Origin: Alphaproteobacteria bacterium
GTDB lineage: Bacteria; Pseudomonadota; Alphaproteobacteria; UBA828
DNA length: 64,000 nt
Direction: 5' to 3'
Assembly: GCA_965220745.1 (NCBI GenBank)
Contig: CBDCQT010000005.1
Coordinates: 320,001 to 384,000 of the forward strand
Shown: positions 1,236-32,436 of the stretch, piece after piece
How the letters are laid out: every line of letters begins with the position of its first letter
How positions within the stretch are numbered: the stretch's first letter is position 1
The notes under the pieces: model-generated
What the model saw: only the letters and a program-made list of their open reading frames with translations
Told to the model about the DNA's origin: nothing
Databases searched by the model: none
Made by a program: the position numbers and the translations under genes

Positions 1236-1490
1236 CCGGACCATGGTGCGGTGCACGGCGCGCGGTGGTTGCGCCAGTATCGCGCCATGAGGAGCAAGTT
1301 CATTCAGTGCGAAAGCGAGCGGGCCGCGGTGGGCGATCGGACGTTCAAGCAGTCCGCACCGTTGTCCGCGTCGCAACGAGAGACGGCCGCCGCTTTGGTC
1401 CACCTTGGGCCGCGCGTCTCGGACCACCTTGGGCCACCTTGGGCCGCTTTGGGCCGGAGTAGGCCGGAATAGGCCGCCTTAAAACCTTCT
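1236..1490 (+). repeat. Dispersed ~250-bp element, copy A
   Basis: CCGGACCATGGTGCGGTGCAC-N24-CGCGCCATGA matches the reverse complement of 19827-19881. 10-bp tandem units at 1390-1480, then AAAACCTTCT. Confidence 0.7.
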
Positions 1491-1551
1491 TTCGGAACTT
1501 GCCGGGATTCTTCACCCGTCTCGGGCAGGCGGCGCGGCGCGACCTCGGCTG

Positions 1552-2460
1552 TCAGGCTGCCGGCACCACCGCGCCGTCCCAGCCCGCAGACGCGAGCACC
1601 CCTTTGTCGACGATCAGCCGCGCCGCCATGGTGGGTCGGGGCGAGGTGCCGATGCGGAGCTCGCCCACGATGCCGAGCAGCATGTACGCCTCGCGGCGCG
1701 AGAGCCCGGTCCAGCGCGAAACCAGACCGACCGCGGCGTCGGACGCGTCCTCGGTCGCGGCTTCGACCGAGGGGCCGTAGCCCACGATCTGCACCGTGCC
1801 GCCCAGCTCGAAGATCGGCCGCTCTACCGGGCTCGCCTTGTTCAGGGCGATGCGCGCCCGCACTCGTGCCGAGCACTCGACGCCGGTGCCGCTGATGATG
1901 CCATCGCTGATCGCAGCGTGCGGGTCGGCCATGAAGATCAGCGCGTCGTCGACCATCACCGGCAGGTGAACCCGCGCGCCGACACCCACGTCGCGCTGGT
2001 CGAAGTCGCCGCCGTAGGGCCCGGCGTGGGAGGGGCGGTAGCCTTCCGGCGGCATGGTCGACAGCGTGCCGAGATTGGGCGCGAGCGGGATCGCCACCCG
2101 GTCGCCGAACCAGGCCTGGCCGTCTCGGATCGGGCAGGCGACGATGGCGGGCTCCTCGAACTCCCCCTTGAGCACGCCGAAGTCGCGCAGCACCGCGTTG
2201 GCGCCCTCGCCGAAGGGCTCGATCGAGAGCAGGTCGATCTCTACCGAATCCCCCGGCCGCGCGCCGCGCACGGCGATCGGCCCGGTCACCGGCGCGAGCG
2301 GGTGCCCTTCGGACGCCGGCGTGAACGGCGTCGGCACCTCGGTAATGTCCTCGATGTCGTCGAAGGCGCCGTCCACCGTGACCTCGATCTCCGTGCCGGG
2401 GTCGATGGTCATTGCCGGCGGGGTCGAGGGGCCGACGGTGAAGAGATAGGTCTTGCCCAT
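1552..2460 (-). CDS. Acetamidase/formamidase family protein
   Basis: GHPLAPVTGPIAVRGARPGD, GGDFDQ, DPHAAISDG..GTGVE. Confidence 0.88.
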   Translation of the reverse strand: MGKTYLFTVGPSTPPAMTIDPGTEIEVTVDGAFDDIEDITEVPTPFTPASEGHPLAPVTGPIAVRGARPGDSVEIDLLSIEPFGEGANAVLRDFGVLKGEFEEPAIVACPIRDGQAWFGDRVAIPLAPNLGTLSTMPPEGYRPSHAGPYGGDFDQRDVGVGARVHLPVMVDDALIFMADPHAAISDGIISGTGVECSARVRARIALNKASPVERPIFELGGTVQIVGYGPSVEAATEDASDAAVGLVSRWTGLSRREAYMLLGIVGELRIGTSPRPTMAARLIVDKGVLASAGWDGAVVPAA

Positions 2461-2481
2461 GTTCCTGCTCCAAGCGCCCGT

Positions 2482-3618
2482 TCAGCCGGCAAGCGCGGCG
2501 TCACGCTCCTGATGGAAATTGTGCAGCCCGATCTCGTTTCGGCCGAACACGATCTCATGCTGGATGCCGGCGGCGAGGTTCGCCTGCACGCCCTCCATCA
2601 CGGCGAAGTCCTCGTTGTCCAGCACGCCCAAAGCGAGCCGCATCATCTCCTCCCAGTCGCGGTTGGAGCGGTCTTCAGAGGGCGAGGCGAAGCTGAAGCG
2701 GCACACCGTGGTGTCGGGCCGTTCGGGGTCGGGGAAGAAGCGCGCAAGCTCCACGTGCGGTCCCTGGCTGATGAACACCGCATTGGGGAAGAGGCGATAG
2801 ACGATGGTCGCGTGCGGCACCACGCGCCAGGTCTCCGGGTCGTCGTTCCGCTGGTCAATGATGCTGCGGCGGGGCGCCACCAGCCGGGCGTGCCGGCCGC
2901 AGGCCTCGTAGAGAAAAACCGTGCCGAACAGCGTCTTGCCGATGGAGGCGCGGTGCAGGATGGGCACGTGGTAGTACTCGAGGAAGGTATCGACCCCGAG
3001 CTTCCAGTTCATCCGCTTGGTCCAGACGTGACTGCCGCGGTGGCGGTAGTCGGCGAGCCCGAAGGCCGCAAGCTCCGCACCGAAATCGCCGAGGACTTCG
3101 TCGAGGTCGAGCGTGCCGGCGGGGTCCAGCAGCAGCCAGACGAAGCCGTCGCGCTCCTCCGTGGGAAAGCGCACCAGGGCCTCTTCGCCGACGACGACAT
3201 CGGGGAAGTGCTCGGCCCCCGGCTGCGCCGTGAGCACGCCGCAGCGGTCGTAGGTCCAGTTGTGATAGGGGCAGACGAAGTGCTTGCCCAGTTGACCCGC
3301 ACCGTCGAGCAGGCGGGCGCCGCGGTGCCGGCACGTGTTCAGCAGGCCGCGTACCGTGCCCGCGTCGTCGCGGATCAGCATGACCGGCACGCCGGCGATG
3401 TCGAGCGTGAGGTAGTCGCCGGGCTCGGCGACCTCGCAGCCGAAGGCGACGGGCAGCGGCTGGCCGCGAAAGATCTTCTCGATCTCGTCTGCGAGCGCCG
3501 TCCGGCAGGTGTAGCGCCTGCCGTCTACGGCCATGGCGGTCTCGGCCTCGGGCAAGGCGCGTCGGTCGATACGGTCGAGCGCTTCGGCGGCGAGGCGGAG
3601 TTCGGTGTGGTGCTGCAA
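2482..3618 (-). CDS. Rieske non-heme iron oxygenase, alpha subunit
   Basis: Rieske ligands CRHRG..CPYH; mononuclear Fe motif NWKLGVDTFLEYYHVPILH; C-terminal ED motif. Confidence 0.9.
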   Translation of the reverse strand: MQHHTELRLAAEALDRIDRRALPEAETAMAVDGRRYTCRTALADEIEKIFRGQPLPVAFGCEVAEPGDYLTLDIAGVPVMLIRDDAGTVRGLLNTCRHRGARLLDGAGQLGKHFVCPYHNWTYDRCGVLTAQPGAEHFPDVVVGEEALVRFPTEERDGFVWLLLDPAGTLDLDEVLGDFGAELAAFGLADYRHRGSHVWTKRMNWKLGVDTFLEYYHVPILHRASIGKTLFGTVFLYEACGRHARLVAPRRSIIDQRNDDPETWRVVPHATIVYRLFPNAVFISQGPHVELARFFPDPERPDTTVCRFSFASPSEDRSNRDWEEMMRLALGVLDNEDFAVMEGVQANLAAGIQHEIVFGRNEIGLHNFHQERDAALAG

Positions 3619-3899
3619 CGGTTCCTCTCTGCGGTCGTGTCTCCGCCTATACTAGCCCATTGCGGGGTTCGCGACGCCACCCGCGCGGCGGCGTGGGCGC
3701 GATGCCGTGGGTGCGGCCGTCCATCGCCTGAATTACGGACGCTGCGCCAACGACTTACGCGACACCCGAGGCGATTCGACCCGATTGGTAGGTTCGGCTA
3801 TAGTGGATCGATGGAAAAGCGAAGCGACGCCACTCTCTTCGCTCTATTGCGCTGTCATCCAAGATCGTTCGCGACTCTCATTATGTGAGGGCGGAACTC

Positions 3900-4952
3900 A
3901 TGGTGGCGACCCCAATCCCCCGCAAAATCGTTGGATGGTCGACAATCGTCGGTGCCTTGGCTTTGGCAATGGTCGGCGCGACTTTTTCGCTCGCCAGCAC
4001 CACCGATGTAGACGCCGAAGTCGTGGAGATGATTCCGGATACCGACGAACAGTTGACGCAAAGTGAGCTTCGCTGGTGCATCTTCGAATCCGCCAGACTG
4101 GACGGAGAAATCGAAGAGCTGGATGCGCGGTTAGTCTGGGAAGTCGAAAACTATAATGTGCGGTCAAGGGCCTATCAGGAGCAGTGCTCAAAGAAGAAAT
4201 TCAGCGAGGGAGACAAGTCCGCGATCGAAGATGAGTTGACGCCTGCCAGGCGTCTCTCTCTCAAGGAGCAGGGCGCCGCGCGGGTCACGGACGCCCGCGC
4301 CGAGCGGGAGAACCGGCGCGTTCACGTCAAGGAGCACGTCGCGCGCGTGCTCGCGGCGCCGGAACATTCCGCCGAGGAACTCGGCCGCGTTTCGCAATGG
4401 GGCGACCTCATTGCCACCGGCCGGGAGCAAGGGCCCTGGCACGAGGTCGAGTGGCCCGCTGCGGCTCCGGGACAGGCGCCGGCTGCCGGATGGGTGCTGG
4501 GCGGTCTCCTGGGCCGCGGTGCCGGGACCGACGGTCGCTTCGCCTACTGCGAGCAGCGCGCAGGCGATCGCGCGACTCACAACGATGTCTTGAGGAGGGA
4601 CATTGATCTTCACACGATCAGCTCGTTTACGGTCGAGAACGGCCTGGAAGACAATGCCTACGTGAAGCTGGTTCGCGAGCAGGATAACGCGGTGGTTTCC
4701 TTGTTTGTCGCGGCGAAGCAAACGGGGTCGTTGATCGGATTACCGACAGGTTCCTATGAAATCGTCTTCGCGACAGGCTCCTATTTCAGCCGGGGCTGCG
4801 ATTCGTTCTCTCAACGGGGCACTGCCCAAAGATTCCCGAACCGAATTGACTATGGTCATCGCGCTGTTGTTTGGACTCTCTCGCTTCAGAAAGAGGAGGA
4901 CGGAAACGCGCGTGCAGATTCGATGAGCTACGATGAATTCGACAGGCTTTAG
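3900..4952 (+). CDS. Hypothetical exported or membrane-anchored protein, possible SH3-like domain
   Basis: About 350-aa ORF with an N-terminal hydrophobic segment; central GPWHEV..GWV resembles SH3b; start uncertain (3885 or 3900). Confidence 0.6.
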   Translation: MVATPIPRKIVGWSTIVGALALAMVGATFSLASTTDVDAEVVEMIPDTDEQLTQSELRWCIFESARLDGEIEELDARLVWEVENYNVRSRAYQEQCSKKKFSEGDKSAIEDELTPARRLSLKEQGAARVTDARAERENRRVHVKEHVARVLAAPEHSAEELGRVSQWGDLIATGREQGPWHEVEWPAAAPGQAPAAGWVLGGLLGRGAGTDGRFAYCEQRAGDRATHNDVLRRDIDLHTISSFTVENGLEDNAYVKLVREQDNAVVSLFVAAKQTGSLIGLPTGSYEIVFATGSYFSRGCDSFSQRGTAQRFPNRIDYGHRAVVWTLSLQKEEDGNARADSMSYDEFDRL

Positions 4953-5167
4953 TGGCCTGCATTTGTTGCGCACAAAACCAACCGTTCTCGCGAGTTCATA
5001 AGAAGATAGGTCTTGGCACAAATGGCGCGAACTATTGGACGCGCCTGACTTGTCCACTTTCAAATTCACCCATACCGCTCGTAGAATCGTGACCAGCGAA
5101 TCGTGTCGCCGGAAAGGGCTGTCGCAGCCACGGACGATTGGGGCCGCGCGGCCGCCGGGAGTGGAGC

Positions 5168-6337
5168 ATGACCGAATCCCCGGAAACTCAAGACCTTGCC
5201 ATCACCCTCGGCGTCGAGGAGGAGTTTTTTCTCGTCGATCCCGAGTCCCGCGACCTCGTCGCCGATCCGGACGAGGGCATTTTCGAGGCCTGCGAGCGGA
5301 GCGGCGGGCCGCACAAGGTCGTCCACGAGTTCCTGCGCTCCCAGATCGAGACCAACACGCGGGTGTGCGGCTCGGTGGCCGATGTGCGCGAGGCGCTGAG
5401 CGAGACCCGGCAGCTGGTCGTCGAGGCGGCGGAGGCGCACGGCGCGCGGGTGATGGCCGCCTCCACTCATCCCTTCGCCTCATGGCGGGAGCAGGCGCCC
5501 ACGCCCGGCGAGCGCTACAGGCGGTTCGCCTCCACGTATCAGGAGAGCGTGCGCCGCGCCCTCGTCGGCGGCATGCACATTCACGCGGGCTTCGGCGATG
5601 AGGACTCGCGCATCCGGGTGATGACGGCGCTCAGGCGCTACCTGCCGTTTCTCCATGCGCTCTCCGCCTCCTCGCCGTTCAACGGCGGGCACGAGACCGG
5701 GTTCAAGTCCTTTCGACTGACGATGATGGGCGCCCTGCCGCGCACCGGCCTGCCCAGCCCGCTGCACTCGCGGGCCGAGTACGAGCGGCTCGTCGCCGAG
5801 TATCTGCGCATGGACTACATCGGCGATGCCCGAGAGCTCTGGTGGGACATTCGCCCGGCCAGCGCATTTCCCACCATCGAATTGCGCATCTGCGACGTGT
5901 GCACGCGCCTGGAAGACGCGGTGAGCGTCGCGGCGCTCTACGCCTCTCTCATCCGCTGGCTCCTGCGGCACGACCGCGACGGCACGCTGCCGCCCGAGCC
6001 GCACACCGAGCTCATATTCCAGGATCGCTGGATCGCCCAGCGCTACGGCGTATTGGCCTTCTTCGGCGACCGGGCCTCCGGCAGCGGACGGATCGACATC
6101 GACGACTATGCGGCGGGGCTGGTGGAGGTGCTCGCGGACGACGCCCGTGCGCTCGGCTGCGAGGCGGAGGTGCGCCGCGCGCTCACCATCGTGAGAGACG
6201 GGACCGGTGCCGACCGCCAGATCGATCTCTACCGCCTGCGCCGCCTTGAGGGCGACAGCGAGGCGGAGGCCTTGCACCGCGTGGTGGATCAGGTGTTGGC
6301 CGAGACGAACGAGGGACTCGGGGACGGCGGCGGGTGA
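5168..6337 (+). CDS. Carboxylate-amine ligase (YbdK/GCS2 family)
   Basis: TLGVEEEFFLVD, GMHIH, LWWDIRP..TIELRICD; GGAG SD before ATG 5168. Confidence 0.9.
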   Translation: MTESPETQDLAITLGVEEEFFLVDPESRDLVADPDEGIFEACERSGGPHKVVHEFLRSQIETNTRVCGSVADVREALSETRQLVVEAAEAHGARVMAASTHPFASWREQAPTPGERYRRFASTYQESVRRALVGGMHIHAGFGDEDSRIRVMTALRRYLPFLHALSASSPFNGGHETGFKSFRLTMMGALPRTGLPSPLHSRAEYERLVAEYLRMDYIGDARELWWDIRPASAFPTIELRICDVCTRLEDAVSVAALYASLIRWLLRHDRDGTLPPEPHTELIFQDRWIAQRYGVLAFFGDRASGSGRIDIDDYAAGLVEVLADDARALGCEAEVRRALTIVRDGTGADRQIDLYRLRRLEGDSEAEALHRVVDQVLAETNEGLGDGGG

Positions 6338-6459
6338 GGGAGCTTCTGCTATCCCTTGGTTGCACCCTTGAGCACCGCCTGGGCGAGCAGCGCCTCGCGC
6401 CAGAGCGCGACCAGCCCCTTCTGGTCGAGATACCTGGGGTGGAGGCTCCAGAGGCGCAT
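6334..6459 (-). pseudogene. Pyrimidine dimer DNA glycosylase / endonuclease V remnant (N-terminal fragment)
   Basis: Minus-strand translation from ATG 6459 is MRLWSLHPRYLDQKGLVALWREALLAQAVLKGATKG*QKLPH, matching the family N-terminus; premature TAG at 6349-6351. Confidence 0.8.
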
Positions 6460-6613
6460 TCTCTGACAATTGAGCTCGACGAACGGCGCCGCAAGCAACC
6501 ATGTGTGGTAGAAAGGTGCCGATCACCCACAACATGTCGTGCGATCGTTGGCAGGCGCACGGCGGCTCCCTATAGTATGTGTCGGCGCCACCACGCGATC
6601 GCTGCACCGTTCA

Positions 6614-8701
6614 ATGGCCGATAACCTCGATCTCTTCGCAGGGCTCGACGCGACCGCCCCCGCAAAAAAGGGCAAGCCTGCGCGCAAGGCCGCGCGGAAG
6701 GCGCCGGGCGCCACTGGCCGGCGGTCCAAGGCAAGGGCGCCGGCGCCCGAGCCCGCGCCGCCCGCCAACGGCGACTACACCGCGCACGACATCGAGATTC
6801 TGGAAGGGCTGGAGCCGGTGCGCCGCCGACCCGGCATGTATGTCGGCGGCACCGATCAGCGGGCGCTGCACCATCTGCTCGCCGAGCTCATCGACAACGC
6901 GATGGACGAGGCGATCGCCGGCCACGCGAGCCGGATCGAGATCGCGCTGCACGGCGACGGCTCGGCCTCGGTCAAGGACAACGGTCGGGGCATCCCCGTC
7001 GACCCGCACCCCAAGTACGAGAACGTCTCGGCGCTGCAGGTGATCCTGACCACGCTGCACTCGGGCGGCAAGTTCGGCGACAAGGTGTACGCGACCTCGG
7101 GCGGCCTGCACGGGGTCGGCCTCTCGGTGGTCAACGCGCTCTCGGACGCGCTGACGGTGGAGGTCGCACGCGACAAGCGGCTCTGGCGGCAGTCCTACGC
7201 GCGGGGGCTGCCGAGCGGCCCGCTGGAGGACGCGGGCCCCGTCACCAACCGGCGCGGCACGCTCGTGCGCTTCCACCCGGACCCCGAGATCTTTGGCGAC
7301 GGCGTCCGCTTCGGACCCCATGCGCTCTTCGAGATGGCGCGGACCCGCGCCTACCTCTACCGCGGGGTCGAGATTCGCTGGTCGTGCGACGCGGCGTTGC
7401 TCGCCGGCGGCAGCGCGGTGCCGGAGACGGCGGTCCTGCACTATCCGGGCGGCCTGGTCGACTATCTGAGTGCCACCCTCGGCAAGCGCCACACGCTGAC
7501 GCCCGCGCCCTTCGCGGGCCAAGGCACGCTCAACGGCGATTCCGGGCGCATCGAGTGGGCGCTGGCCTGGCCGGAGGACGAGGAGGGCTTCGTCGCCTCC
7601 CACTGCAACACGGTGCCGACCAGCCAGGGCGGCAGCCACGAGGCCGGAATGCGGTCCGCTCTCGTGCGCGGGCTCAAGGGCTACGGCGCGCTCGTGGGCA
7701 ACAAGCGCACCGCCCAGCTCACCGCCGACGACGTGACCGGCGGCGCCTGCGCGCTGCTCTCGGTGTTCCTGCGCGACCCGCAGTTCCAGGGGCAGACCAA
7801 GGAGCGGCTCACCTCGCCCGAGGCCGGCCGCCTGGTGGAGAACGCCCTCGGCGATCACTTCGACCATTGGCTCTCGGCCGATCCCACCGCCGCCAACCTC
7901 TTGCTCGAGCGCGTGGTCGAGCGTGCCGAGGAGCGGCTCCGGCGCCGGAAGGACCGCGAGGTCGCCCGCAAGCGCGCGGCCCGCAAGACCCGGCTGCCGG
8001 GCAAGCTCGCCGATTGCGCGCGCGAGGCGGCGGACGGCACCGAGATCTTTCTGGTCGAGGGCGATTCAGCGGGGGGCTCGGCCAAGCAGGCGCGCAACCG
8101 CGAGACGCAGGCCGTGCTGCCGCTACGAGGCAAGATCCTCAACGTGGCGAGCGCCAGCGCCGACAAGCTGCGCGGCAACAAGGAGCTCGACGATCTGGTC
8201 CAGGCCCTGGGGTGCGGCACGGGCGCGCGCTTCGATGCGGGCGCGCTCCGCTACGAGCGGGTCGTCATCATGACCGATGCGGACGTGGACGGCGCCCACA
8301 TCGCCGCGCTGCTGATGACGTTCTTCTACCGACAGATGCCGGGGCTCATCGACGCCGGGCACCTCTTCCTGGCGCAGCCGCCGCTCTATCGCCTGGCGCG
8401 CGGCGGCACCACCCGCTATGCCCGCGACGACGCCGACCGCGACCGGCTGCTGGAGAGCGATTTCGCCGGCGCCGGCAAGGTCGAGATCAGCCGCTTCAAG
8501 GGGCTCGGCGAGATGCCGCCGGCTCAGCTCAAGGAGACCACCATGGACCCGGCGCGGCGCACGCTGCTGCGCGTCGAGGTCGCCGAGGACGCAGGCACGG
8601 CCACGGCGCGCCGGGTCGAGGAGCTGATGGGCCGCCGTCCCGAATCCCGCCTCGCCTTCATCCAGACTCACGCCGACCGGGTGACCGCGCTCGACCTGTG
8701 A
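6614..8701 (+). CDS. parE: DNA topoisomerase IV subunit B
   Basis: LEGLEPVRRRPGMY, ELIDNAMDEA, GGLHGVG, FLVEGDSAGGS, PLRGKILN, IMTDADVDG; lacks the GyrB insertion. Confidence 0.93.
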   Translation: MADNLDLFAGLDATAPAKKGKPARKAARKAPGATGRRSKARAPAPEPAPPANGDYTAHDIEILEGLEPVRRRPGMYVGGTDQRALHHLLAELIDNAMDEAIAGHASRIEIALHGDGSASVKDNGRGIPVDPHPKYENVSALQVILTTLHSGGKFGDKVYATSGGLHGVGLSVVNALSDALTVEVARDKRLWRQSYARGLPSGPLEDAGPVTNRRGTLVRFHPDPEIFGDGVRFGPHALFEMARTRAYLYRGVEIRWSCDAALLAGGSAVPETAVLHYPGGLVDYLSATLGKRHTLTPAPFAGQGTLNGDSGRIEWALAWPEDEEGFVASHCNTVPTSQGGSHEAGMRSALVRGLKGYGALVGNKRTAQLTADDVTGGACALLSVFLRDPQFQGQTKERLTSPEAGRLVENALGDHFDHWLSADPTAANLLLERVVERAEERLRRRKDREVARKRAARKTRLPGKLADCAREAADGTEIFLVEGDSAGGSAKQARNRETQAVLPLRGKILNVASASADKLRGNKELDDLVQALGCGTGARFDAGALRYERVVIMTDADVDGAHIAALLMTFFYRQMPGLIDAGHLFLAQPPLYRLARGGTTRYARDDADRDRLLESDFAGAGKVEISRFKGLGEMPPAQLKETTMDPARRTLLRVEVAEDAGTATARRVEELMGRRPESRLAFIQTHADRVTALDL

Positions 8702-8720
8702 GGGCGCGCGGGCGCGCCTG

Positions 8721-8832
8721 TCTTATCGCTCACGGCAGCCGGCCTTTGGCCGGCGCCTCCGCGAGGGCGCCGCTTAAGCGGCGGGCCGCGGAGGCGGCCT
8801 GTCGCGCGTTCGTCAGCGACGAACGCGCTCCA
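8721..8832 (+). repeat. Structured MITE-like repeat, copy 2
   Basis: Same conserved core as copy 1; ends GCTCCA; lies between convergent parE and the epimerase gene. Confidence 0.85.
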
Positions 8833-8845
8833 CGCTCGGGCTGGG

Positions 8846-9820
8846 TCAGAAGTCGGCAGTGACGCGGCCGTCCTGGAGCAGCACCTGGAACGCCTGGAAG
8901 GTCTCGGCGGTGCCATCCTCCAGAGAAATTGCACCGTAGTCGCCGATATGTGCACGCAGCAGCGCATCCTGGTCCTCCATCGGGAAGGGCAGAGGATCGC
9001 CGCTCGCCCGCACCCGCGCGCCGGGAGCAAGCCGTCGGATCGCGTCCAGCCCATCCTCGATCGGGGTGACGGTCCCGTTACAGTCGAAGGCAGGTGCGCC
9101 GTCGCCGTCCCGCGAGATGGCCTGGAGGAAGGCTGCCGCGACCTCGCCCGCGTAGAGATATGAGATCGACCCGGTGAAGGGCACCTCGTAGTCGCGCCCG
9201 GCTGCCGCTGCCAGGATCGCGACCGTGGTCTTCGACGTCATGCCCTGGTCGCGGCCGACGCCGTAGACGATGCCGGGTCGGAGCCCGATGCTCGGCACCG
9301 CCCAGTCCTGCCAGTAGGTCCGGGCGATCGCTTCGTCGCAGGCCTTGTAGGCGCCATAGAGGGTGGAGGCGTAGCCGCTCTCCGCCGGCGCGCCGTGGGC
9401 GGCGATGGAGCTCGCGTAGGCAAGGCGGTGCACGCCATGGCGCCGGGCCGCCTCGAACACGGCCACCGTGCCGACCACGTTGACGCGAGCGCCTGCGACG
9501 GGGTCCGCCTTGCAGAAGGGCACCTGCAGGGCCGCGAGGTGCAGGATCGCCCCGATCCCGTGCTCCTCCACCACCCGATCGACGGCCTCGGCATCGGCAA
9601 TATCCCCCTCCACCCAGGTTACTTGTGCGAGCTCTTCCTCCGACATCAAGAGTCCAGGCCGGCGGCGGCTCGAGTCGAGGTCGAAGGAGACGGCGGGCAC
9701 GCCGGCACGCACGAGGATCGCGAGCGCCCAGCTCCCGATGCAGCCGCTGGAGCCGGTCACCAGCACCGGCCGGTCGAAATCCTCCTTGCGCGCGGTGAAG
9801 CGGCTGTTCAGCGAGTCCAT
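8846..9820 (-). CDS. NAD-dependent epimerase/dehydratase family protein
   Basis: LVTGSSGCIG Rossmann motif, HLAALQ, YGAYK catalytic motif. Confidence 0.88.
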   Translation of the reverse strand: MDSLNSRFTARKEDFDRPVLVTGSSGCIGSWALAILVRAGVPAVSFDLDSSRRRPGLLMSEEELAQVTWVEGDIADAEAVDRVVEEHGIGAILHLAALQVPFCKADPVAGARVNVVGTVAVFEAARRHGVHRLAYASSIAAHGAPAESGYASTLYGAYKACDEAIARTYWQDWAVPSIGLRPGIVYGVGRDQGMTSKTTVAILAAAAGRDYEVPFTGSISYLYAGEVAAAFLQAISRDGDGAPAFDCNGTVTPIEDGLDAIRRLAPGARVRASGDPLPFPMEDQDALLRAHIGDYGAISLEDGTAETFQAFQVLLQDGRVTADF

Positions 9821-9981
9821 GGCTCTCACTCGGTGGTGTGGAGGGGTCGCATGGCGAGGCGCGGAGTCTTGCACGCGATGGGGACTGCGGCCAACGGCCA
9901 CCCGTGCGGGTCTGTTTCCAGATGTAGCCCGTGGCTATCATCGCGCTGCTTGTGCTTTCGGCTCGTGAGGGAAGTGGAGTC

Positions 9982-10908
9982 ATGACGGAAACCTCGGCGG
10001 CGCGGCGCAAGACGATCGTCCTCCTCGACGGCGGTGTCGGGCAGGAGCTCTATCGCCGGAGCACGCGGCCAGCGGCGCCGCTCTGGTCCGTCCAGGTGAT
10101 GATGGACGAGCCGCACCTCGTCGAGGCCGTGCATCTCGACTTCATCGAGGCCGGCGCGCGGATCATCACGGTCAACACCTACACGGCGACGCCCCACAGG
10201 CTCACCCGCGAGGGCTTGCCCGACAAGTTCGAGGCCCTGCAGTGTGCCGCCTTCGCCGCAGCGGCTTCCGCCCGCGAGAAGAGCGGGCAGGCGGTCAGGA
10301 TCGCCGGCTGTCTGCCGCCGCTGGTCGGGAGCTACAGAGCGGATCTGACGCCGCCGGAGGACGAATGCCTCGCGAACTACCGCAGAATCGTCGCGGTGCA
10401 GGCTGACCACGTGGATCTGTTCCTGTGCGAGACCATGCTGTCCGCAGCGGAGGCACGCGCGGCGACGGTGGCCGCGGCCGAGAGCGGCAAGCCAGTCTGG
10501 ACGGCGCTCTCGGTCGACGATGCCGACGGCTCCGTGCTGCGCTCGGGCGAGGGGGTTGCCGAAGGAGCACGGGCCGCCGTAGATGCGGGCGCAGACGCGG
10601 TGCTGATCAATTGCTCCAGCCCCGAGGCGGTGGCCACCGCCATGCCGCTGCTGGCCGGCATCGGCGTTCCCTTCGGCGGCTACGCCAACGGCTTCGTCTC
10701 CATAGCCGCGATGCAGCCGGGCGGAACCGTCGAGGCATTGAAGGCGCGCGACGACTTGGGCCCTGCAACCTACGCCGACCACGCGATGGGCTGGATCGCC
10801 TCGGGCGCCGCCATCGTCGGCGGCTGCTGCGAGATCGGGCCCGGCCATATCGCCGCGCTCGGCCAGCGGCTCGCGGCGGAAGGGCACGACGTGGCAGCCG
10901 CGCTCTAA
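9982..10908 (+). CDS. Homocysteine S-methyltransferase family protein
   Basis: [19 protein letters not shown] and GGCC zinc ligands. Confidence 0.9.
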
Positions 10909-11897
10909 GCCAGAGCAGCGCTCGCTTCGGCGGTGATCTCGTAGGAGCGCAGACGGGCCGCGGGATCGTGGATGTTGGAGGTCACCATGATCTCGTCGAC
11001 GCCGGTGTGCTTCGCGAATGTCGCGAGGCGCTCCGCCACAAGTTCGGGCGTGCCCGAGGCCGAACAGGTGAACCAGCGTTTCAGGATGGACTGTTCCTGC
11101 GCATCCAGGCCGGCCTCGAAGTCTCGCACCGGGCGGGGCAGGGGGCCCGGCACGCCCCGGTGCAGGTTGAGCACCGATTGCTGGGCCGAGCTCCGCACGT
11201 AAGCCGCCTCATCGTCGCTATCGGCGGCGAAAACATTGAACCCCGCCATCACGTAGGGTGCGTCGCACTGTTCCGAGGGGCGGAACTGCTCGTGGTAGAC
11301 CTCGATCGCCTGCATCAGCGCGGCGGGCGCGAAGTGCGACGCGAAACCGTAGGGCAGCCCCAGCGCAGCGGCGAGCTGGGCGCCGAAGAGGCTTGAGCCC
11401 AAGATCCAGATCGGCACGTTGAGGCCCGCCCCCGGCACCGCCCGCACGCGCCGCCCCGGCTCCGATGGCTGGAAATAGCTCTGCAGCTCCACCACGTCGC
11501 GCGGGAAGTCGTTGACGTCCCCGGTGAGCGTGCGCCTGAGCGCGTGGGACGTCATCTGGTCCGTTCCCGGCGCGCGGCCGATGCCGAGGTCGATCCGGCC
11601 CGGATAAAGCGATTCCAGGGTGCCGAACTGCTCGGCGATCACCAGCGGCGCGTGGTTGGGGAGCATGATGCCGCCGGCGCCGACGCGAATGGTCTCGGTG
11701 GCGCCCGCGACGTGGCCGATCAGCACCGCCGTTGCGGCGCTGCCGATCCCGGCCATGTTGTGATGCTCTGCCAGCCAATAGCGACGGAAGCCCAGGCGCT
11801 CCACGTGGCGCGCGAGGCCCACCGTGTTGCGGAAGGCCTGCGCCGCGTCCGCGCCTTCCGGGATCGGCGAAAGATCGAGAACCGAGAGAGCGACCAT
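10905..11897 (-). CDS. LLM-class flavin-dependent oxidoreductase (YhbW-like)
   Basis: [44 protein letters not shown]. Confidence 0.9.
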
Positions 11898-11919
11898 GGA
11901 CCGGGCGTCGTGCCTCGCT

Positions 11920-14085
<2,166 letters not shown>

Positions 14086-14204
14086 GGCGCACTATATGGC
14101 TGCCCCAAGCCCGGACGCCAGAGGGCGCTTTTGAGGGTCCTGCCGTTCTGGACAAACGCCATTGTCGGGCCGATAGTGCGGGCCGATTGCCCCGGAGGAT
14201 GTGG

Positions 14205-14597
14205 ATGTATCAGAAGGAAACGCGCGCCATTGAAATCACGGTCAAGCCGTTCTATCTGGAGGAGCAGTCCGAGCCCGACGACAGCCACTTCGTATTCGCC
14301 TATCACATCCGGATCCAGAACAACGGCGGGGACGTGGTTCAGCTCTTGAACCGCTATTGGCAAATCACTGACGGCCTCGGCCGCATCCAGGAGGTGCGGG
14401 GGCCCGGAGTCGTCGGCGAGCAGCCGGTGCTGCGGCCGGGGGAAGCGTTCGAGTACACGAGCGGATGCCCGCTCAACACCGCGACCGGCATCATGGTCGG
14501 CACCTATGAGATGGAAACGCTGGACGGCGAGCGCTTCGATGTGGATATTCCCGCATTCTCGCTCGACGCGCCGGATGCGCCCGTGCGGCTCAACTGA
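14205..14597 (+). CDS. apaG: ApaG protein
   Basis: [36 protein letters not shown]. Confidence 0.93.
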
Positions 14598-14708
14598 GAT
14601 CGCGCAGCCGCCGGTACGCTGACCAGACAGCCGAACGACGCCGAGACCGCCCCGCTGCGGTCTCGCAGTACCGTACAGCCGGCCCGGAGCCGGAGAAGGA
14701 GACCGCCT

Positions 14709-15359
14709 GTGGACGACAGCCAGCCCGCGCCGCTTGCCGGCGCCGATGACGACACGACCCAGGGCGCGGTCGCGCGACCGACGAGGGACGAGGCCGAGCA
14801 GGCGGTGCGCGTCCTGCTCCGCTGGGCCGGCGATGACCCCGAGCGCGAGGGGCTGCTCGATACGCCCAAGCGGGTCGCGCGCGCCTACGAGGAGTATTTC
14901 CGGGGCTACAGCCAGGACCCTTATGCGATCCTGCGCCGCACTTTCGAGGAGACCAACGGCTACGACGAGATGGTCGTTCTCCGCGACATCGATTTCCGCT
15001 CGCACTGCGAGCACCACGTCGCGCCGATCGTCGGCCGCGCCCACATCGGTTACTTGCCGGACCACCGCGTAATTGGCATCAGCAAGCTCGCGCGCGTGGT
15101 CGACGTCTACGCCCGCCGCCTGCAGATTCAGGAGAAGCTGACCGCCGAGATCGCCGACGCGATCGAGACGGTCCTGCAACCGCGCGGCGTCGGAGTCGTG
15201 ATCGAGGCCGCGCACCACTGCATGACGACCCGAGGCGTGGCCAAGGAGGGAGTCCTCATGGTGACGAGCCGGATGCTCGGCACGTTTCGTACGGATCCGA
15301 AGACCCGCCGTGAGTTTCTCAGCATGATCGGGAACCCGGCGTCCTCGGTGCCGCGCTAG
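14709..15359 (+). CDS. folE: GTP cyclohydrolase I
   Basis: [38 protein letters not shown]; AAGGAG SD before GTG. Confidence 0.95.
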
Positions 15360-15413
15360 GACGCCCGGCCCGGCTGAGCCGCCGGGCAGCCGCCAGGGCT
15401 CACGAGCCGCCCG

Positions 15414-16871
15414 ATGGGCTCCGTCAGGGACTTCCGGCCGGTTCTCTTCGTGGTCGGCATTCTGCTGATCACGCTGTCGCTGGCGATGGCATTGCCGGCC
15501 ATCGCCGACGCAGTGACAGGCAATCCCCACTGGCGGGTCTTTCTCGCCGCGAGCGTCTTCACGCTCTTCATCGGCACCTGCCTGGTGCTCTCCAACAGGA
15601 TGCGGGAGCCGCGGCTGACGGTGCGTCAGGCCTTCGTGCTCACCACCTTGAGCTGGGTTATCGTGGCCGCCTTCGCCGCGCTGCCGTTCGCCTTCTCCGA
15701 CCTCAACCTGAGCTACACCGACGGCTATTTCGAGGCGATGTCGGGGCTCACCACGACCGGGTCCACGGTCATCGTCGGGCTCGACGATGCGCCGGCCGGC
15801 ATTCTGCTGTGGCGCGCGCTGCTGCAGTGGCTCGGCGGCATCGGCATCATCGTCACGGCCATCGCGATCCTGCCGATGCTGCGGGTCGGCGGCATGCAGC
15901 TCTTCCACACGGAATCCTCGGACAGCTCCGAGAAGGTGCTGCCCCGCGCCGCCCAGCTCGCCGGAGCCATCGGCATGGTGTACCTCGGGCTCACGATCAG
16001 CAACGGAATCGCCTACTGGGCCGCCGGCATGACGCCGTTCGAGGCGGTGTGCCACGCGATGACGACCATCGCCACCGGCGGCTTCTCGACTTCGGACGCC
16101 TCGCTCGGCCACTTCAACAACGACGCCATTGAGGGCATCGCCACCGTCTACATGGTGCTGGGCTCGCTCCCCTTCGTACTCTACTTGCAGGCTGTGCGCG
16201 GCGGTTGGGGGGCGCTCGCGCGCGACACGCAGGTGCGCTGGTTTTTCGGGCTGATTCTGTTCGCACTGCTCTCGCTCGCGGGCTGGCTGATGGCGGCCAA
16301 CGACGCCGCGCCGACCGATGCGTTTCGCGAAGCGGCCTTCAACGGCATCTCGATACTGACGGGCACAGGCTATTCCACCGCCGACTTCTCCGCCTGGGGC
16401 ACCTTCGCGCTTCCCGTCTTTACGCTCCTCATGTTTATCGGCGGTTGTACCGGCTCGACCACGGGCGGGGTGAAGGTCTTCCGAATTCAGGTTCTCGCGT
16501 CCACGTCCTTGTCGCAGATCCGCCAGCTCATCCAGCCGCACGGCGTCTTCATCAGCAAGTTCAACCGGCGGCCGATTCCGGAAAGCGTGTCGCCGGCGGT
16601 GATGGGGTTCTTCTTCCTGTTCATGGTCAGCTTCGGGCTGATCGCCATGGGGCTCGCGCTGATGGACCTCGACTACGTGACCAGCATCAGCGGCGCGGCC
16701 ACGGCCATCGCCAATGTCGGCCCCGGCCTGGGCGAGACCATCGGCCCTGCCGGCTCCTTCCAGCCCCTGCCGGAGCCGGCGAAGTGGCTGCTGTCGGCCG
16801 CCATGCTGCTCGGCCGGCTCGAGTTGTTCACAGTGCTGGTGCTGTTCGTGCCCCGCTTCTGGCGGGACTAG
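15414..16871 (+). CDS. trkH: TrkH potassium uptake membrane protein
   Basis: SGLTTTG, LQWLGGIG, ATGGFS, GSTTGGVK, NVGPG, LGRLE. Confidence 0.93.
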   Translation: MGSVRDFRPVLFVVGILLITLSLAMALPAIADAVTGNPHWRVFLAASVFTLFIGTCLVLSNRMREPRLTVRQAFVLTTLSWVIVAAFAALPFAFSDLNLSYTDGYFEAMSGLTTTGSTVIVGLDDAPAGILLWRALLQWLGGIGIIVTAIAILPMLRVGGMQLFHTESSDSSEKVLPRAAQLAGAIGMVYLGLTISNGIAYWAAGMTPFEAVCHAMTTIATGGFSTSDASLGHFNNDAIEGIATVYMVLGSLPFVLYLQAVRGGWGALARDTQVRWFFGLILFALLSLAGWLMAANDAAPTDAFREAAFNGISILTGTGYSTADFSAWGTFALPVFTLLMFIGGCTGSTTGGVKVFRIQVLASTSLSQIRQLIQPHGVFISKFNRRPIPESVSPAVMGFFFLFMVSFGLIAMGLALMDLDYVTSISGAATAIANVGPGLGETIGPAGSFQPLPEPAKWLLSAAMLLGRLELFTVLVLFVPRFWRD

Positions 16872-16894
16872 GCAGGTCTGGAGCCCATGTGCTC

Positions 16895-17035
16895 GGAGCG
16901 AGTCCGTCCTCGACGGACTCGCGACAGGCCGCGACCGCGGCCCGCCGCGAAAGCGGCGCCCTCGCGGAGGCGCCGGCCGTCGCGCCCGTAGGCGCGCGAG
17001 ATCGCGCGACGGCCGGCTGCCGTGAGCGATAAAGA
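16895..17035 (-). repeat. Structured MITE-like repeat, copy 3 (inverted)
   Basis: Reverse complement reads TCTTTATCGCTCACGGCAGCCGGCC..GCGGCCTGTCGCGAGTCCGTCGAGGACGGACTCGCTCC; lies between convergent trkH and the SDR gene. Confidence 0.85.
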
Positions 17036-17036
17036 C

Positions 17037-17789
17037 TTACCCCTTTTCCGCCAGCATGCCGCCGTCGACCGGCAGCACGTGGCCGGTGACGAAGCTCGCC
17101 TTGTCCGAGAGCAGCCAGACCACCGCGTCGGCGACCTCCCCGGGCCGGCCGATCCGCCCCATCGGCACGCGGCCCGAGGCATTGGTGGGGTCGTTGTTCC
17201 AGCCACGCAGGAGGAGGGGGGTCAGAATCGGCCCCGGTGCCACCGCGTTCACCCGGATGCCGTCCTTGGCATAATCGAGTGCTGCTGCCCTGGTCATGCC
17301 GGAGACCGCGTGCTTTGCGGTCATGTAGGGCGACCAGAGCGGATAGGCCGCCAAGCCCCACATGGAGCCCGCGTTGACGATGGAGCCGCCGCCCGACTCC
17401 AGCATCGCCGGAATCTCCGCCTGCATGCAGAGATAGACGCCCTCGATCATGACCGCGAAGACGTGCTGCACCGCGGCCATGTCTTGCTCTGCCAGCAACG
17501 CCTGGGGGCCTTCGATGCCGGCGTTGTTGTAGGCGAGGTCGAGCCGGCCGAACTCACTGAGCGCCCGGTCGATGAGAGCCTCGACCTGGCCCGCCTCGGC
17601 CACGTCCACGCGCATGAAGGCGGCTTTGCCGCCCGCGTCGCGAACCTTTGCCGCCACGGCCTCGCCGCCTTCCTCGTCAATGTCGGAGACCAGCACCGCA
17701 GCTCCCTCGGCAGCGAGTGCCACCACCGTCGCCTGCCCGATGCCCGAGCCGCCGCCGGTTACGATCGCCACGCGTCCGTCGAATAGCAT
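17037..17789 (-). CDS. Short-chain dehydrogenase/reductase
   Basis: TGGGSGIG, NNAG, YMTAK, VDGG; GGAGGAGG SD before ATG 17789. Confidence 0.92.
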   Translation of the reverse strand: MLFDGRVAIVTGGGSGIGQATVVALAAEGAAVLVSDIDEEGGEAVAAKVRDAGGKAAFMRVDVAEAGQVEALIDRALSEFGRLDLAYNNAGIEGPQALLAEQDMAAVQHVFAVMIEGVYLCMQAEIPAMLESGGGSIVNAGSMWGLAAYPLWSPYMTAKHAVSGMTRAAALDYAKDGIRVNAVAPGPILTPLLLRGWNNDPTNASGRVPMGRIGRPGEVADAVVWLLSDKASFVTGHVLPVDGGMLAEKG

Positions 17790-17817
17790 CGTTTCCTCCT
17801 CCTCCCAGAGACTCCAG

Positions 17818-18807
17818 TCAGTCTCCGGGATCGATGACCCGATCGGGCGGGTTGTGCCCGTCGGCAAAGGTCTGGATGTTGATCAACACCTTCTCGCCCA
17901 TGTCGCGGCGCCCCTCAATTGTGGCCGAGCCGATGTGCGGCAACGCCACCACGTTGTCGAGGGTGAGCAGCTTCGGCGAGACCACCGGCTCGTTCTCGTA
18001 CACGTCAAGCCCGGCGCCCGCGATCTTGCCGGCCTCCAGCAGCCGCACCAGGGCTGCCTCGTCGATGGCGTGGCCGCGCGATGTGTTAATGACATAGGCT
18101 TGCGGACGCAGCAGGCCGAGCCGACGCGCCGAGAGCAGGTGATAGGTCGCCGGTGTGCTCGGGCAGTGAATGGAGACGAAATCCATATGCGCCAGCATCT
18201 GGTCCAGACTCTGCCACCAGGTGGCGTCGAGCTCGGCTTCGGTCTCCTCGTCGAGGCGGTTCCGGTTGTGATAGTGGATCGCGAGCCCGAAGCCGCGCGC
18301 CCGGCGGGCGACCGCCTGGCCGATCCGCCCCATGCCGATGATGCCGAGCCGCTTGCCCCAGATTCGATGGCCCAGCATGGTGGTCGGCGCCCAGCCCTGC
18401 CAGTCGCCGCCCCGCAGCAGGCGCTCGCCCTCGGAGAGCCGGCGCGGCACCGCGAGGATCAGCGCCATGGTCATGTCCGCCGTGTCCTCGGTCAGCACGC
18501 CGGGCGTGTTGGTCACCAGTATGCCGCGCTTCCCCGCCGCAGCGAGGTCGATGTGATCGACGCCGGTGCCGAAGCTCGCGATCAGCTTCAGGTCAGGGCC
18601 GGACTGGCCGATCAGGTCGCCGTCGATGGTATCCGTCACGGTCGGCACGAGCACGTCAGCCTCTGCCACAGCCTTCGCCATGGCCTCGCGGTCGAGCGGC
18701 CAATCGTCCTCGTTGAGTCGGGTGTCGAAAAGCTCCATCATGCGCGCCTCGATCTCCCGGGGGAGACGCCGCGTCACGATCACCTTGAGCTTTCTGCCAG
18801 GTCTCAT
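17818..18807 (-). CDS. D-2-hydroxyacid dehydrogenase (glyoxylate reductase / D-glycerate dehydrogenase type)
   Basis: TNTPGVLTEDTAD, GMGRIG, INTSRG, GLDVYENEP, PHIGSAT. Confidence 0.92.
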   Translation of the reverse strand: MRPGRKLKVIVTRRLPREIEARMMELFDTRLNEDDWPLDREAMAKAVAEADVLVPTVTDTIDGDLIGQSGPDLKLIASFGTGVDHIDLAAAGKRGILVTNTPGVLTEDTADMTMALILAVPRRLSEGERLLRGGDWQGWAPTTMLGHRIWGKRLGIIGMGRIGQAVARRARGFGLAIHYHNRNRLDEETEAELDATWWQSLDQMLAHMDFVSIHCPSTPATYHLLSARRLGLLRPQAYVINTSRGHAIDEAALVRLLEAGKIAGAGLDVYENEPVVSPKLLTLDNVVALPHIGSATIEGRRDMGEKVLINIQTFADGHNPPDRVIDPGD

Positions 18808-18914
18808 CGACCCTCCGCGCGCGGCTCGGTGGGCGCGATCCGAGCGCAACCGGCAGCCTGTTTAGCAAACGCCCCATGGCGACTCAAACCGCAGGGCGGG
18901 ATTCGGCGCCCGCC

Positions 18915-19478
18915 ATGAGTGCTGACCGAAGCCGCCGCCGCGGGCAATGCGCGCCGCAGCACACCCTTCGCACGCCTGCGCGCCTCTTTGCGGCCGGCCG
19001 TGCGCTCGCGCTGGCGGCGGCGCTCGCGGCTATGGTCACCGCCGTCGCCGCGGCTCTTGGGCCGCAAGTCCGCGCCCAGGAGGGTCCGCGCTTCGTCTCG
19101 CTGAAGGCGGAGGTCGCCAACCTTAGGGTCGGCCCCGGCCGGCGCTATCCCATCGAGTGGGTCTACCAGCGGCGCGGCCTGCCGCTGCTGGTGGTCGCGC
19201 ACTTCGATCAGTGGCGCTGGGTGCTCGACCACGAGGGGACGAAGGGCTGGATGCACAAGTCGCTGCTCTCGACCCACCGCACAGTCGTCATCATGAACGG
19301 GGTGCAGACCATCCGGGAGCGTCCGTTGACCGGCTCGCCGGCAGTCCTGCGGGCCGAAGCCGGGGTCATCGCCGATCTGCTCGGTTGCGAGGACGGCTGG
19401 TGCCGCATCGGGCTGGCCGGCGAGGAAGGCTGGCTGCCTGAAAGCGCCCTCTGGGGTGTCAAGCCGCCTGCGCAGTAA
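18915..19478 (+). CDS. Exported tandem SH3-domain protein (DUF1058-like)
   Basis: Signal peptide; PRFVSLK..NLRVGPG..YPIEWVY..GW; typically divergent from the dehydrogenase in alphaproteobacteria; start uncertain. Confidence 0.85.
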   Translation: MSADRSRRRGQCAPQHTLRTPARLFAAGRALALAAALAAMVTAVAAALGPQVRAQEGPRFVSLKAEVANLRVGPGRRYPIEWVYQRRGLPLLVVAHFDQWRWVLDHEGTKGWMHKSLLSTHRTVVIMNGVQTIRERPLTGSPAVLRAEAGVIADLLGCEDGWCRIGLAGEEGWLPESALWGVKPPAQ

Positions 19479-19633
19479 CCCGGAATTTTCGCCAGAATCA
19501 CGGCCCTCGCCCCGACCGTGTGCTGCGCGTCGCGCGGAAACCGGGCGCGGGCGCGAAATCATGATCGCGCAAGCCCGCGCGCGACGACTTGGACCTCGCG
19601 CGCCGTCGCCGCGACGTCCCGCGAGACAAGTAC

Positions 19634-19881
19634 AGAATGTTTTTCCGGGATACGCCGGGATTAAGCTGGATAAGTGTGATTCCATATCGCTCGCGTCTGA
19701 AGGGCGTCGCGGGTGCATGCGCAGGGTAGCGCTCGTGGAGAGGCCGGGCCTCGGATTCCATTCCCGAACCTCACGCGATGTTGGGCCGACGCGCATGTCC
19801 TTCGCCGCAGCCACTTTCCCACACCATCATGGCGCGAACCTGAAGCACACGCTCCACCCTGTGCACCGCACCATGGTCCGG
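19634..19881 (-). repeat. Dispersed ~250-bp element, copy B (inverted)
   Basis: 19861-19881 and 19827-19836 match copy A exactly at the same spacing; 10-bp-phased GGAT units at 19645-19681; AAAAACATTCT on the minus strand. Confidence 0.7.
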
Positions 19882-19931: not shown

Positions 19932-20676
19932 CTAGCCTGGGATGTATCTCTGCTTCAAAGGCATCAACACCTTATACTGAGAGTCGAATGCCTCATAGGA
20001 TTCATAAATCAGTTCAATGAGCTCGTCTCTGTCGATCAGGCGCAGATTTGGCTTCGACCCCTCAAATGTTCGCGCGTTATTGCTATAGCTTCCAAGAGAT
20101 ATAAATAGGCCGTGCTCACCATCTTCTATCGCCCCGTGAAGTTCCTGAACTTTTGGTTGACCGATTTGATCCAACGTCTGTTTACATTGGACCTTGATGA
20201 TCGGAGGTTCGAATCCAAGCTGATCCTTGTGAGCAATCACGTCGATGCCGCCATCAGAAGATTGTCGGGTCACTCTCGCGCGATAACCCATGCACTGCAA
20301 TAGATGTGCGACAAAACACTCGAAGTCGCGTGGGGTCATTTTGTTCTTGAGTCGATTTATAATAAAGTCTTCAGTAGACTCTTCGAGTTGAGTGGAAACT
20401 TCCTCTACAGTATCATCGTCGAAGTCCTCCACTCGTGTCGGCGTGCTGCCTATCGCCGCTCGGAACTCTTCGGCGTGGGTTGTAATCTGGAATAGCGTAA
20501 TGGCGGAGCCGATCTCGTAGAGTGCGGATTGGGAAAAGCTACTCCGAGGAAGACCCTTGCCCCACGTGACGCTTCGTCTGTGCGGGTATTGGTTGACTTT
20601 GTCCGCCTGGTATCTGTATTCGGTAGACACCTTTCCGAAATAAATTCGCCGATCTGCTTTAGACGGGTAAACGATA
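19932..20676 (-). pseudogene. mrr: Mrr-family restriction endonuclease, C-terminal part (IS-interrupted)
   Basis: FECFVAHLL..GY..DGGIDV..KVQCK Mrr nuclease motif; visibly lower GC than the flanks. Confidence 0.88.
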
Positions 20677-21733
20677 GAGCATTTTTCGACCTTATAGAAT
20701 CTTTAGAATTTTCAATTGCTTGTAGATGTGATTCAAGATGCAGGCTGGTGAAGGAGGCCAGCCTGCATGACGCGACCTCTTTCGAATGATCTACGTCGTC
20801 GGGTGGTGACGGCGGTGGTCGATGGCGGCATGTCCCGGCGGAGCGCGGCGAGACGCTTCGGCATCGCGCCGTCGACGGCGATCAAGTGGGTCAGCGCCTG
20901 GCGCCGCACGGGCAGCTGGCGGCCGAGAGCGCAGGGCGGCGACAGACGCTCGCAGCGGATCGAGGCACGGGCCGAGGTGGTGCTTGCGCTCCTGGACGAG
21001 ACCCCGGACATGACCTTGGCGGAGATCGCCGCCCACCTGGAGGACGAGCACGGCCTGCGGGTCTCCCAGAGCGCGGTGTGGCGCTTCTTTCACCGCCGCG
21101 GCATCACCTTCAAAAAAAACCGCGCACGCCAGCGAGCAGCAACGCGCTGACGTGCTCAGGCGCAGGCGCGCCTGGGTCGAAGCCCAGCCCGATCTCGACC
21201 CTGAGAAGCTCGTCTTCGTCGATGAAACAGGCGCGTCCACCAAGATGGCGAGACGCTCGGGCCGGGCTCCGCGCGGACAGAGGTGCCGCGCCCCTGTGCC
21301 CCATGGCCACTGGAAGACCACAACCTTCGTCGGTGCCCTCAGGCTGAGCGGGATGACCGCTCCCATGGTGCTCGACGGCGCCATGCATGGCGCCGCCTTC
21401 CTCGCCTACGTAGACCAAGTGCTGGTGCCCACGCTCAAGCCCGGCGACATCGTGGTGATGGACAACCTTGCCTGCCACCGCAGCAGCGCTGTCCGCGACG
21501 CCATTCACCAGGCCGGGGCCGAGCTCCACTTCCTGCCGCCCTACAGCCCCGACCTCAACCCGATCGAGATGGCCTTCTCCAAGTTCAAGGCCTACCTCAA
21601 GCGACGCGCCGCCCGCACCGTCCCGGAACTCTGGGACGCCATCGGCGAAGCCACAGACAACTTCACACCCGCCGAATGCCAAAACTACTTCGCTGCTGCA
21701 GGATATGACCGCGTATGATCGGAACCTGCTCTA
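20675..21733 (+). mobile_element. IS630-family insertion sequence, including the duplicated TA
   Basis: Imperfect terminal IRs TAGAGCATTTTTCGACCTTA and TAGAGCAGGTTCCGATCATA (15/20 identical); TA at 20675-76 and 21732-33. Confidence 0.95.
20767..21718 (+). CDS. IS630 transposase in two frames joined at an A8 run
   Basis: ORF A 20767-21150 (HTH region); ORF B to 21718 with FVDETG, VMDN and YSPDLNPIE (DDE); TTCAAAAAAAAC at 21109-21120. Confidence 0.92.
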
Positions 21734-32014: not shown

Positions 32015-32419
<405 letters not shown>

Positions 32420-32436
32420 GTTTCTCTCCCCACGGA

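Follow-up and report, generated by a model that had tools for sequence, protein, structure and literature searches.

The window analysed here, 64,000 nucleotides of an alphaproteobacterial genome (G000:C5:320001-384000; G000 is the source genome, other G-numbers denote its relatives and C-numbers contigs), contains two copies of a dispersed intergenic cassette, one starting at 1236 on the forward strand and the other at 19881 on the reverse strand. As described in a first-pass annotation of the sequence, the copies share an identical core (21 of 21 nucleotides), followed by a spacer with 12 of 24 identical positions and by an identical 10-mer; both end in 10-bp-phased tails, and both lie between convergent genes, i.e., those for an ScfR-type regulator and an acetamidase (copy 1) and for an SH3 protein and an Mrr-like nuclease (copy 2). 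The sequence AAAAC(C/A)TTCT, found 245 nt (copy 1) and 238 nt (copy 2) from the start of the core, was thought to close the element; it is indeed present in both window copies, but in only 3 of the 51 copies of the family. Furthermore, the two tails represent different array types, A with GGGCC-like units in copy 1 and B with ATCCC-like units in copy 2.

A search for further copies, with a profile score above 20 bits as threshold and the reversed genome as control (maximum 11 bits), yielded 20 exact and 51 profile copies of the core in G000. Chance is therefore excluded, as the expected number of core matches is only 1e-7 for the window and 9e-6 for the whole genome. The core is present in 15 of 18 same-genus genomes and in two further members of the genus (17 of 20), and in none of 12 genomes outside the family. 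The idea of a dispersed cassette that combines an operator or promoter head with a phased, protein-binding-type tail is supported, and no match to a named element was found in the libraries and literature searched.

The head: a probable Mor-type late promoter

With the second ATG of the cassette, the inferred start, taken as +1, the head of the 51 copies consists of a 16-bp dyad at -51 to -36 (centre -43.5) and a -10-like hexamer, which has a constant offset in 44 copies; -11A is kept in 46 and -7T in 44 of them, and there is no canonical -35 element. In copy 1 (forward strand), dyad analysis and comparison with the geometry described for Mu in PMC2582627 and PMC4390567 locate the dyad at 1236-1251 (-51 to -36 if +1 is 1287) and, together with a TGCAC extension of its arm, a likely site for an activator of the Mor/C family at 1236-1256. 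It is followed by the hexamer CAGTAT (1275-1280), with conserved -11A and -7T and a C at -12, and by the second ATG as the predicted +1 (1287-1289). The corresponding elements of copy 2 (reverse strand) are the dyad (19881-19866) with its TGCAC arm extension (19861-19881 in all), the hexamer CAGGTT (19837-19842) and the second ATG as predicted +1 (19828-19830).

In G000, copies of this promoter head the operon of the DUF5675 lysis region, the portal gene, the protease-capsid-tail operon and small terminase (terS) genes of the gp27 family, and a weaker copy opens the large terminase gene terL. The equivalent of the second ATG opens the DUF5675 gene, terL and some of the terS genes elsewhere in this genome. 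In MuA-bearing prophages of G006 and G002, the same dyad directly follows mor and precedes the gene for the I protease. Because of the dyad geometry and the placement before phage late genes, the head is almost certainly a Mu-type late promoter, likely activated by Mor. The late and middle promoters of Mu (Plys, PI, PP, Pmom, Pm; activators C and Mor, PF08765) likewise possess a -10 box, no standard -35 and a 16-bp dyad, to which Mor and C bind with the centre at -43.5 (PMC2582627 and PMC4390567), and they are likewise placed before lysis and I-protease operons. The promoters described here differ from them in the dyad sequence, in their apparently leaderless starts, in their number (about 50 chromosomal copies, mostly gene-less) and in the presence of one Mor only. 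A degenerate copy also stands before a 290-amino-acid open reading frame (ORF) without Pfam or PHROG match (L398:1256-2208; G000:C13:158756-159707), whose product presumably resembles another family of stand-alone terminase-like proteins.

The first-pass annotation had read the cassette as possibly encoding a variable peptide, 15 residues long and controlled by an operator of the PhaR type. The underlying 9-bp match of TGCGGTGCA to what that annotation took to be the PhaR motif (TGCRNYGCA-type) is real, but it sits in the right arm of the longer dyad, and the place of this dyad between mor and the I protease gene in the MuA prophages points to Mor. Both 15-codon translations could be reproduced as well (1243-1290, forward strand, in copy 1), but they do not reflect a conserved gene or a feature of the family: 17 of the 51 copies have an ATG with a 15-codon frame and 34 do not, six have no ATG at all, and the lengths range from 6 to 304 amino acids. 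The palindromic operator has the ATG of the small ORF at its centre, and the stop codon of this ORF, which overlaps the second ATG, is missing from the G006 and G008 orthologues of copy 1. Variation is the same at second and third codon positions (0.47 and 0.49). A peptide gene under PhaR control is thus very improbable.

Most copies have no gene behind the promoter, and these were compared between genomes in 21 orthologous pairs (8 of 29 pairs were omitted as replaced, doubtful or interrupted by an insertion sequence). Mismatches amounted to 14 of 441 positions in the dyad and to 54 of 378 in the spacer (p 7e-9), and neither -11A nor -7T was changed in any of the 21 pairs. Judged from these counts, the gene-less promoters are themselves under selection between species. 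The RNA sequencing runs consulted contained fragments from relatives only.

Such selection would also be expected if the cassettes encoded a small RNA that is induced by Mor and binds a protein or ribosomes through its repeats while particles are made, and the first 55 nt can be folded (z -2.9 for copy 1 and -1.5 for copy 2). However, the part that follows is unalignable between most paralogues, the left arm of the stem is invariant, and the stem is broken (at most 5 of 9 pairs) in 11 of 51 copies. In addition, Rfam gave no match for the cassettes at the gathering score and only RNase P in the window, and the same arrays occur in the ends of phage genomes, which makes a small RNA an improbable explanation. 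A conserved hairpin in the core was considered as well and was rejected for lack of covariation support.

The tail: phased arrays as at the ends of Mu-type phages

An array, defined as at least three phased units downstream of the core, was found in 38 of 51 copies in a broader scan and in 36 in a stricter one; in the broader scan, such phasing was seen in 19 of 3000 random windows, but in none of the 51 upstream regions and on none of the 51 opposite strands. (An initial type A pattern with 84 matches, versus 88 in the reversed control, was judged too loose and replaced.) Among the 13 array-less copies are the three operon promoters. Where a copy contains terS, the array is located within the 3' end of this gene or immediately beyond it.

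In copy 1, the second ATG is followed by a variable non-coding middle (1290-1396), the place that terS occupies in gene-bearing copies. Then comes a type A array of eight GGGCC-like units (1397-1477), six of them consecutive at 10-bp spacing (1421-1471), which are predicted sites for TerS of the pac (packaging site) type. An A/T-rich tract 3' of the array (1481-1490) lies where prophage ends have their terminal transposase site. Copy 2 has the same order on the reverse strand, with a variable non-coding middle (19681-19827), a type B array of four ATCCC-like units spaced by 9, 10 and 10 bp (19645-19680), which matches the left-end arrays of the phages B3, BcepMu and Mu, and an A/T-rich tract (19634-19643).

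Prophage ends in G013 and G002, delimited by TG..CA plus 5-bp duplications, have a comparable layout. Beside terS-terL-portal-F, a terminal transposase-like site is followed by a gap with three to four repeats of 10-bp period and by further sites; the period-10 autocorrelation is 0.56-0.69 at this end versus 0.19-0.28 at the other, where tandem sites are found. Among 40 prophage loci surveyed, most continue past F, and clear end arrays were seen in two, both in one genome. A type B unit model, trained on the gene-less arrays of G000 only, was then scored across whole phage genomes (RS1 was excluded, as its record has no TG ends). Among about 75,000 positions, the left end ranked first in B3 and BcepMu, 18th in Aussie, 19th in Mu and 26th in YPCBV-1, and 61st, 842nd and 1388th in D3112, KS10 and RcapMu, i.e., in phages without a clear gp27 hit. 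The phage-end signal was lost at periods 7 and 13. Indeed, the left ends of Mu (L249/L331:30-90), B3 (L332:30-90) and BcepMu (L333:40-95) have an ATCCC-type, 10-bp-phased array in common, which is not annotated in the phage records and is a candidate binding site of gp27. The layout of KS10 is split in a similar way, and its head genes lie at one end, according to its sequence record and PMC2628397. In Mu, the first packaging cut is made at a set distance from the phage end, leaving about 50-100 bp of host DNA to the left of it (PMC5557969 and PMC7350765).

Taken together, the array of the cassettes is very probably homologous to the pac region of Mu. The packaging region at the left ends of Mu, B3 and BcepMu, located about 30-90 bp inside one end (pac of Mu lies in the gap between L1 and L2), has the ATCCC-type units, the 10-bp period and the TerS family (gp27, PF11985, PHROG 426) in common with it. 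In contrast to the phage ends, the arrays described here are detached from transposase sites and belong to no phage genome; they are joined to a preceding late promoter or terS and are multiplied, with 3 to more than 20 units and with lineage-specific types A, B and C. Type A arrays accompany one terS clade, and this link and their position are the sole ties of type A to the array family. In G031 and G032, gene-less copies have the same array variants as those behind the terS paralogues of the respective genome. The suspicion that a phage remnant might be concerned holds as far as origin goes: by these comparisons both halves of the cassette come from Mu-type phages, but instead of lying inert they have been multiplied and are subject to selection.

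Two of the arrays have grown to about 20 or more units (L054, i.e., site 2 of G009, and G000:C11:37933, reverse strand), which suggests slippage. A seven-unit type B array without promoter is located at G000:C10:102090 (forward strand), downstream of mor and a Dps-like gene.

Mu-like particle genes in the host genome

G000 possesses a set of Mu-like particle genes comprising head, tail, terminase and lysis genes, which are present in single copy and split across the genome. The S24 repressor, cro-like, gam-like, gemA and mor genes form a control block on one contig, with mor at C10:100895-101242, the tail-tip genes are on C13, and the tape measure protein is short (269 amino acids). The small terminase gene of the gp27 family, with nine matches, is the sole multiplied gene of the set. 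Matches to terL and capsid genes were found in 16 of 20 genomes each. The median pairwise ratio of nonsynonymous to synonymous substitution rates (dN/dS) is 0.08 for the capsid gene (16 pairs), 0.21 for terL (13), 0.19 for mor (11) and 0.12 for a host gene (17); terS evolves faster (pairwise about 0.1-0.6) and includes truncated copies. Sequence divergence hence indicates that promoter and particle genes are under purifying selection. In the predicted structure of TerS, the N-terminal helices have a predicted local distance difference test (pLDDT) score above 90; a fold search gave no significant match, and its weak rows included phage small terminases.

MuA was not found in G000 with prophage MuA as query. 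The Mu-transposase C-terminal matches in this genome were rejected as MuA candidates, since they belong to 532-amino-acid ORFs paired with a 256-amino-acid ORF and were read as IS21-like. As a DDE_2 search gave no match even in the controls, it carries no information on this point. GTA_TIM had no match in G000, and tblastn revealed no match of Mor among named phages.

Multiplication of terS alone (nine copies), its faster evolution and its truncated copies would also fit a defensive role, in which the promoters are fired by the activator of an invading Mu-like phage, whose Mor and TerS are absorbed by the spare dyads and arrays and whose packaging is misdirected by divergent or truncated TerS proteins of the host. 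This would account for the retention of dyads in gene-less copies, and resident MuA-bearing prophages share the core of the dyad and have similar end arrays. We regard such a decoy function, in all its parts, as the strongest of the rival explanations but as rather unlikely: the full single-copy set of head, tail, terminase and lysis genes is under purifying selection, the conserved -11A and -7T would be superfluous for a pure binding decoy, and G002, G006 and G013 contain Mu-like prophages despite their cassettes.

Distribution and turnover of the cassettes

Of the 18 genus genomes, 15 have the element, 15 have multicopy gp27 and 13 have Mor; G012, G016 and G017, all near-complete, have none of the three. 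Most copies of G006 are located at the same sites as those of G000. At site 1, 18 loci comprised five with the cassette, nine with a gap of 29-56 bp, one with another insert and three in which one flank is absent; at site 2, 21 loci comprised eight with the full cassette, two with the tail only and eleven with none. Cassettes are also replaced, as site 2 of G006 and G011 is 92-93% like site 1 of G000 and 58-59% like site 2 of G000.

This replacement would be in line with the cassettes being neutral debris of repeated mini-Mu insertions, homogenised by gene conversion. Indeed, G013 contains four or more mini-Mu elements (C9:184754-189882, C15:381934-388277, C13:162347-170596 and C8:85071-107742) that have undergone deletion but retain both ends, with 5-bp duplications, as well as terL, portal, F and the array end. 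However, the position-specific conservation within the 55-bp core at orthologous sites largely refutes mere debris, the arrays follow the terS type of each genome, and neither a terminal TG nor a target duplication was found at the polymorphic sites (four aligned, two informative). We therefore consider this explanation about as improbable as a small RNA. As in mini-Mu elements or miniature inverted-repeat transposable elements (MITEs), internally deleted derivatives are spread over the genome, but the cassettes have one degraded end only, instead of two TG..CA ends with a 5-bp target duplication. It is possible that the mini-Mu elements of G013 are a snapshot of packaging genes spreading by transposition and thereby show the route by which cassettes spread.

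A second, more abundant family of palindromic intergenic repeats occurs in the window at 1042-1217, abutting copy 1, and at 8723-8835 and 16891-16978. As G006 and G015 have the cassette at the copy 1 site and no palindromic repeat next to it, cassette and repeat insert independently. Two insertions are found upstream of copy 2 (19932-21718), namely the Mrr-like nuclease gene, which is low in GC, and an IS630-type element consisting of two ORFs with an A-run at the junction; in deeper relatives, the SH3 gene faces the DUF3501 gene directly at this locus. RNase P RNA of class A is located at 32016-32422.

A possible role in packaging of host DNA

Each of the two window copies is likely a gene-less derivative of a phage unit that consisted of a probably Mor-activated late promoter, terS and a probable pac array from the end of a Mu-type phage. 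The explanation that we favour, by a modest degree of confidence, is that the cassettes serve as dispersed packaging starts of a domesticated, transposase-less, Mu-derived particle similar to a gene transfer agent (GTA), and that they are used on host DNA. In the proposed sequence of events, the switch controlled by the S24 repressor would be released first. Mor would then bind the dyad, and transcription would start at the second ATG, so that the particle operons and all cassettes are fired. TerS would bind the phased array, and TerL would cut about 50-150 bp downstream of it, by analogy with Mu. Headful packaging would run back through the promoter into the upstream DNA, i.e., to the left of copy 1 and to the right of copy 2. 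About 45 scattered units would allow packaging to begin at many points of the chromosome. The promoter retained in gene-less copies might, as a guess, license the array by transcription only after induction.

Several observations weigh against this explanation. The particle genes appear to decay in places, since G018, assembled as a single contig, has no capsid match, and terL of G008 is in two pieces 5 kb apart (C3:301399-307947); the best terL and Mor matches of G013 are of prophage types, and no Mu F gene was found in G000. The copies are randomly spaced on the chromosome (coefficient of variation 1.06; largest gap 353 kb), and each of the two window sites lacks a cassette in roughly half of the relatives surveyed, so that no individual site is essential. 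Type A arrays, including that of copy 1, match no phage end tested (best end ranks 42-2061), and G013 has three weak type A arrays, although no A-clade terS was found there. The right end of Aussie also scores (rank 3), and the gp27 match of this phage is weak (E 0.009). Co-inheritance or gene conversion alone can yield a linkage of terS and array. The decay in G018 and G008, the random spacing and the unexplained retention of gene-less promoters are the reasons why our confidence in dispersed packaging starts is not higher.

It is somewhat more doubtful, with the odds slightly against it, whether the system represents an independently evolved Mu-derived GTA that kept a sequence-specific TerS, seeded dozens of inducible pac cassettes and in which TerS paralogues and array types co-evolve. 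The known GTAs (RcGTA, DsGTA, CcGTA, BaGTA, VSH-1, Dd1) resemble it in having a split, vertically kept set of phage genes, no replication genes and a short tape measure. Here, too, the particle genes are vertically inherited, purifying selection acts on them, and no replication or transposase gene accompanies them, with the decay mentioned for G018 and G008. In contrast to these GTAs, the set described here has Mu ancestry and no GTA_TIM match and lacks both homology to RcGTA and the loss of the DNA-binding domain from TerS. Known GTAs apparently have no initiation site and a TerS without DNA-binding domain, as stated in PMC11841831, which also treats the choice of DNA by GTAs as an open question and GTAs as hard to recognise from sequence. 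TerS of G000 keeps an N-terminal helical domain, and the candidate sites are multiplied.

Chromosomal sites or an additional TerS are used as packaging starts in other systems as well: packaging of non-phage DNA is initiated at pseudo-pac sites in generalized transduction by P22 and through the extra TerS of phage-inducible chromosomal islands (PICIs) and Staphylococcus aureus pathogenicity islands (SaPIs). In contrast to chance look-alikes or a single island, the cassettes are selected and promoter-linked and occur beside a particle gene set kept by the host. The literature searched contained no description of the cassette, nor of a GTA that derives from Mu and has its pac sites scattered (subscription journals and supplements were outside the search). 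The parts are known individually; their arrangement is new to that literature.

The cassettes provide an example of a phage promoter that is held by selection without a gene behind it. They also single out a candidate binding site of gp27, the phased array in the left ends of Mu, B3 and BcepMu, which can be tested in the laboratory phage Mu. For the bacterium itself, which belongs to an uncultured lineage, about 45 oriented start sites per chromosome are predicted at the sequence level, and this prediction can be checked on virome reads without culture. If the system is indeed such a Mu-derived GTA, a map of the transferable DNA would be written into the genome, and these bacteria would have adopted a packaging solution opposite to that of the known GTAs.

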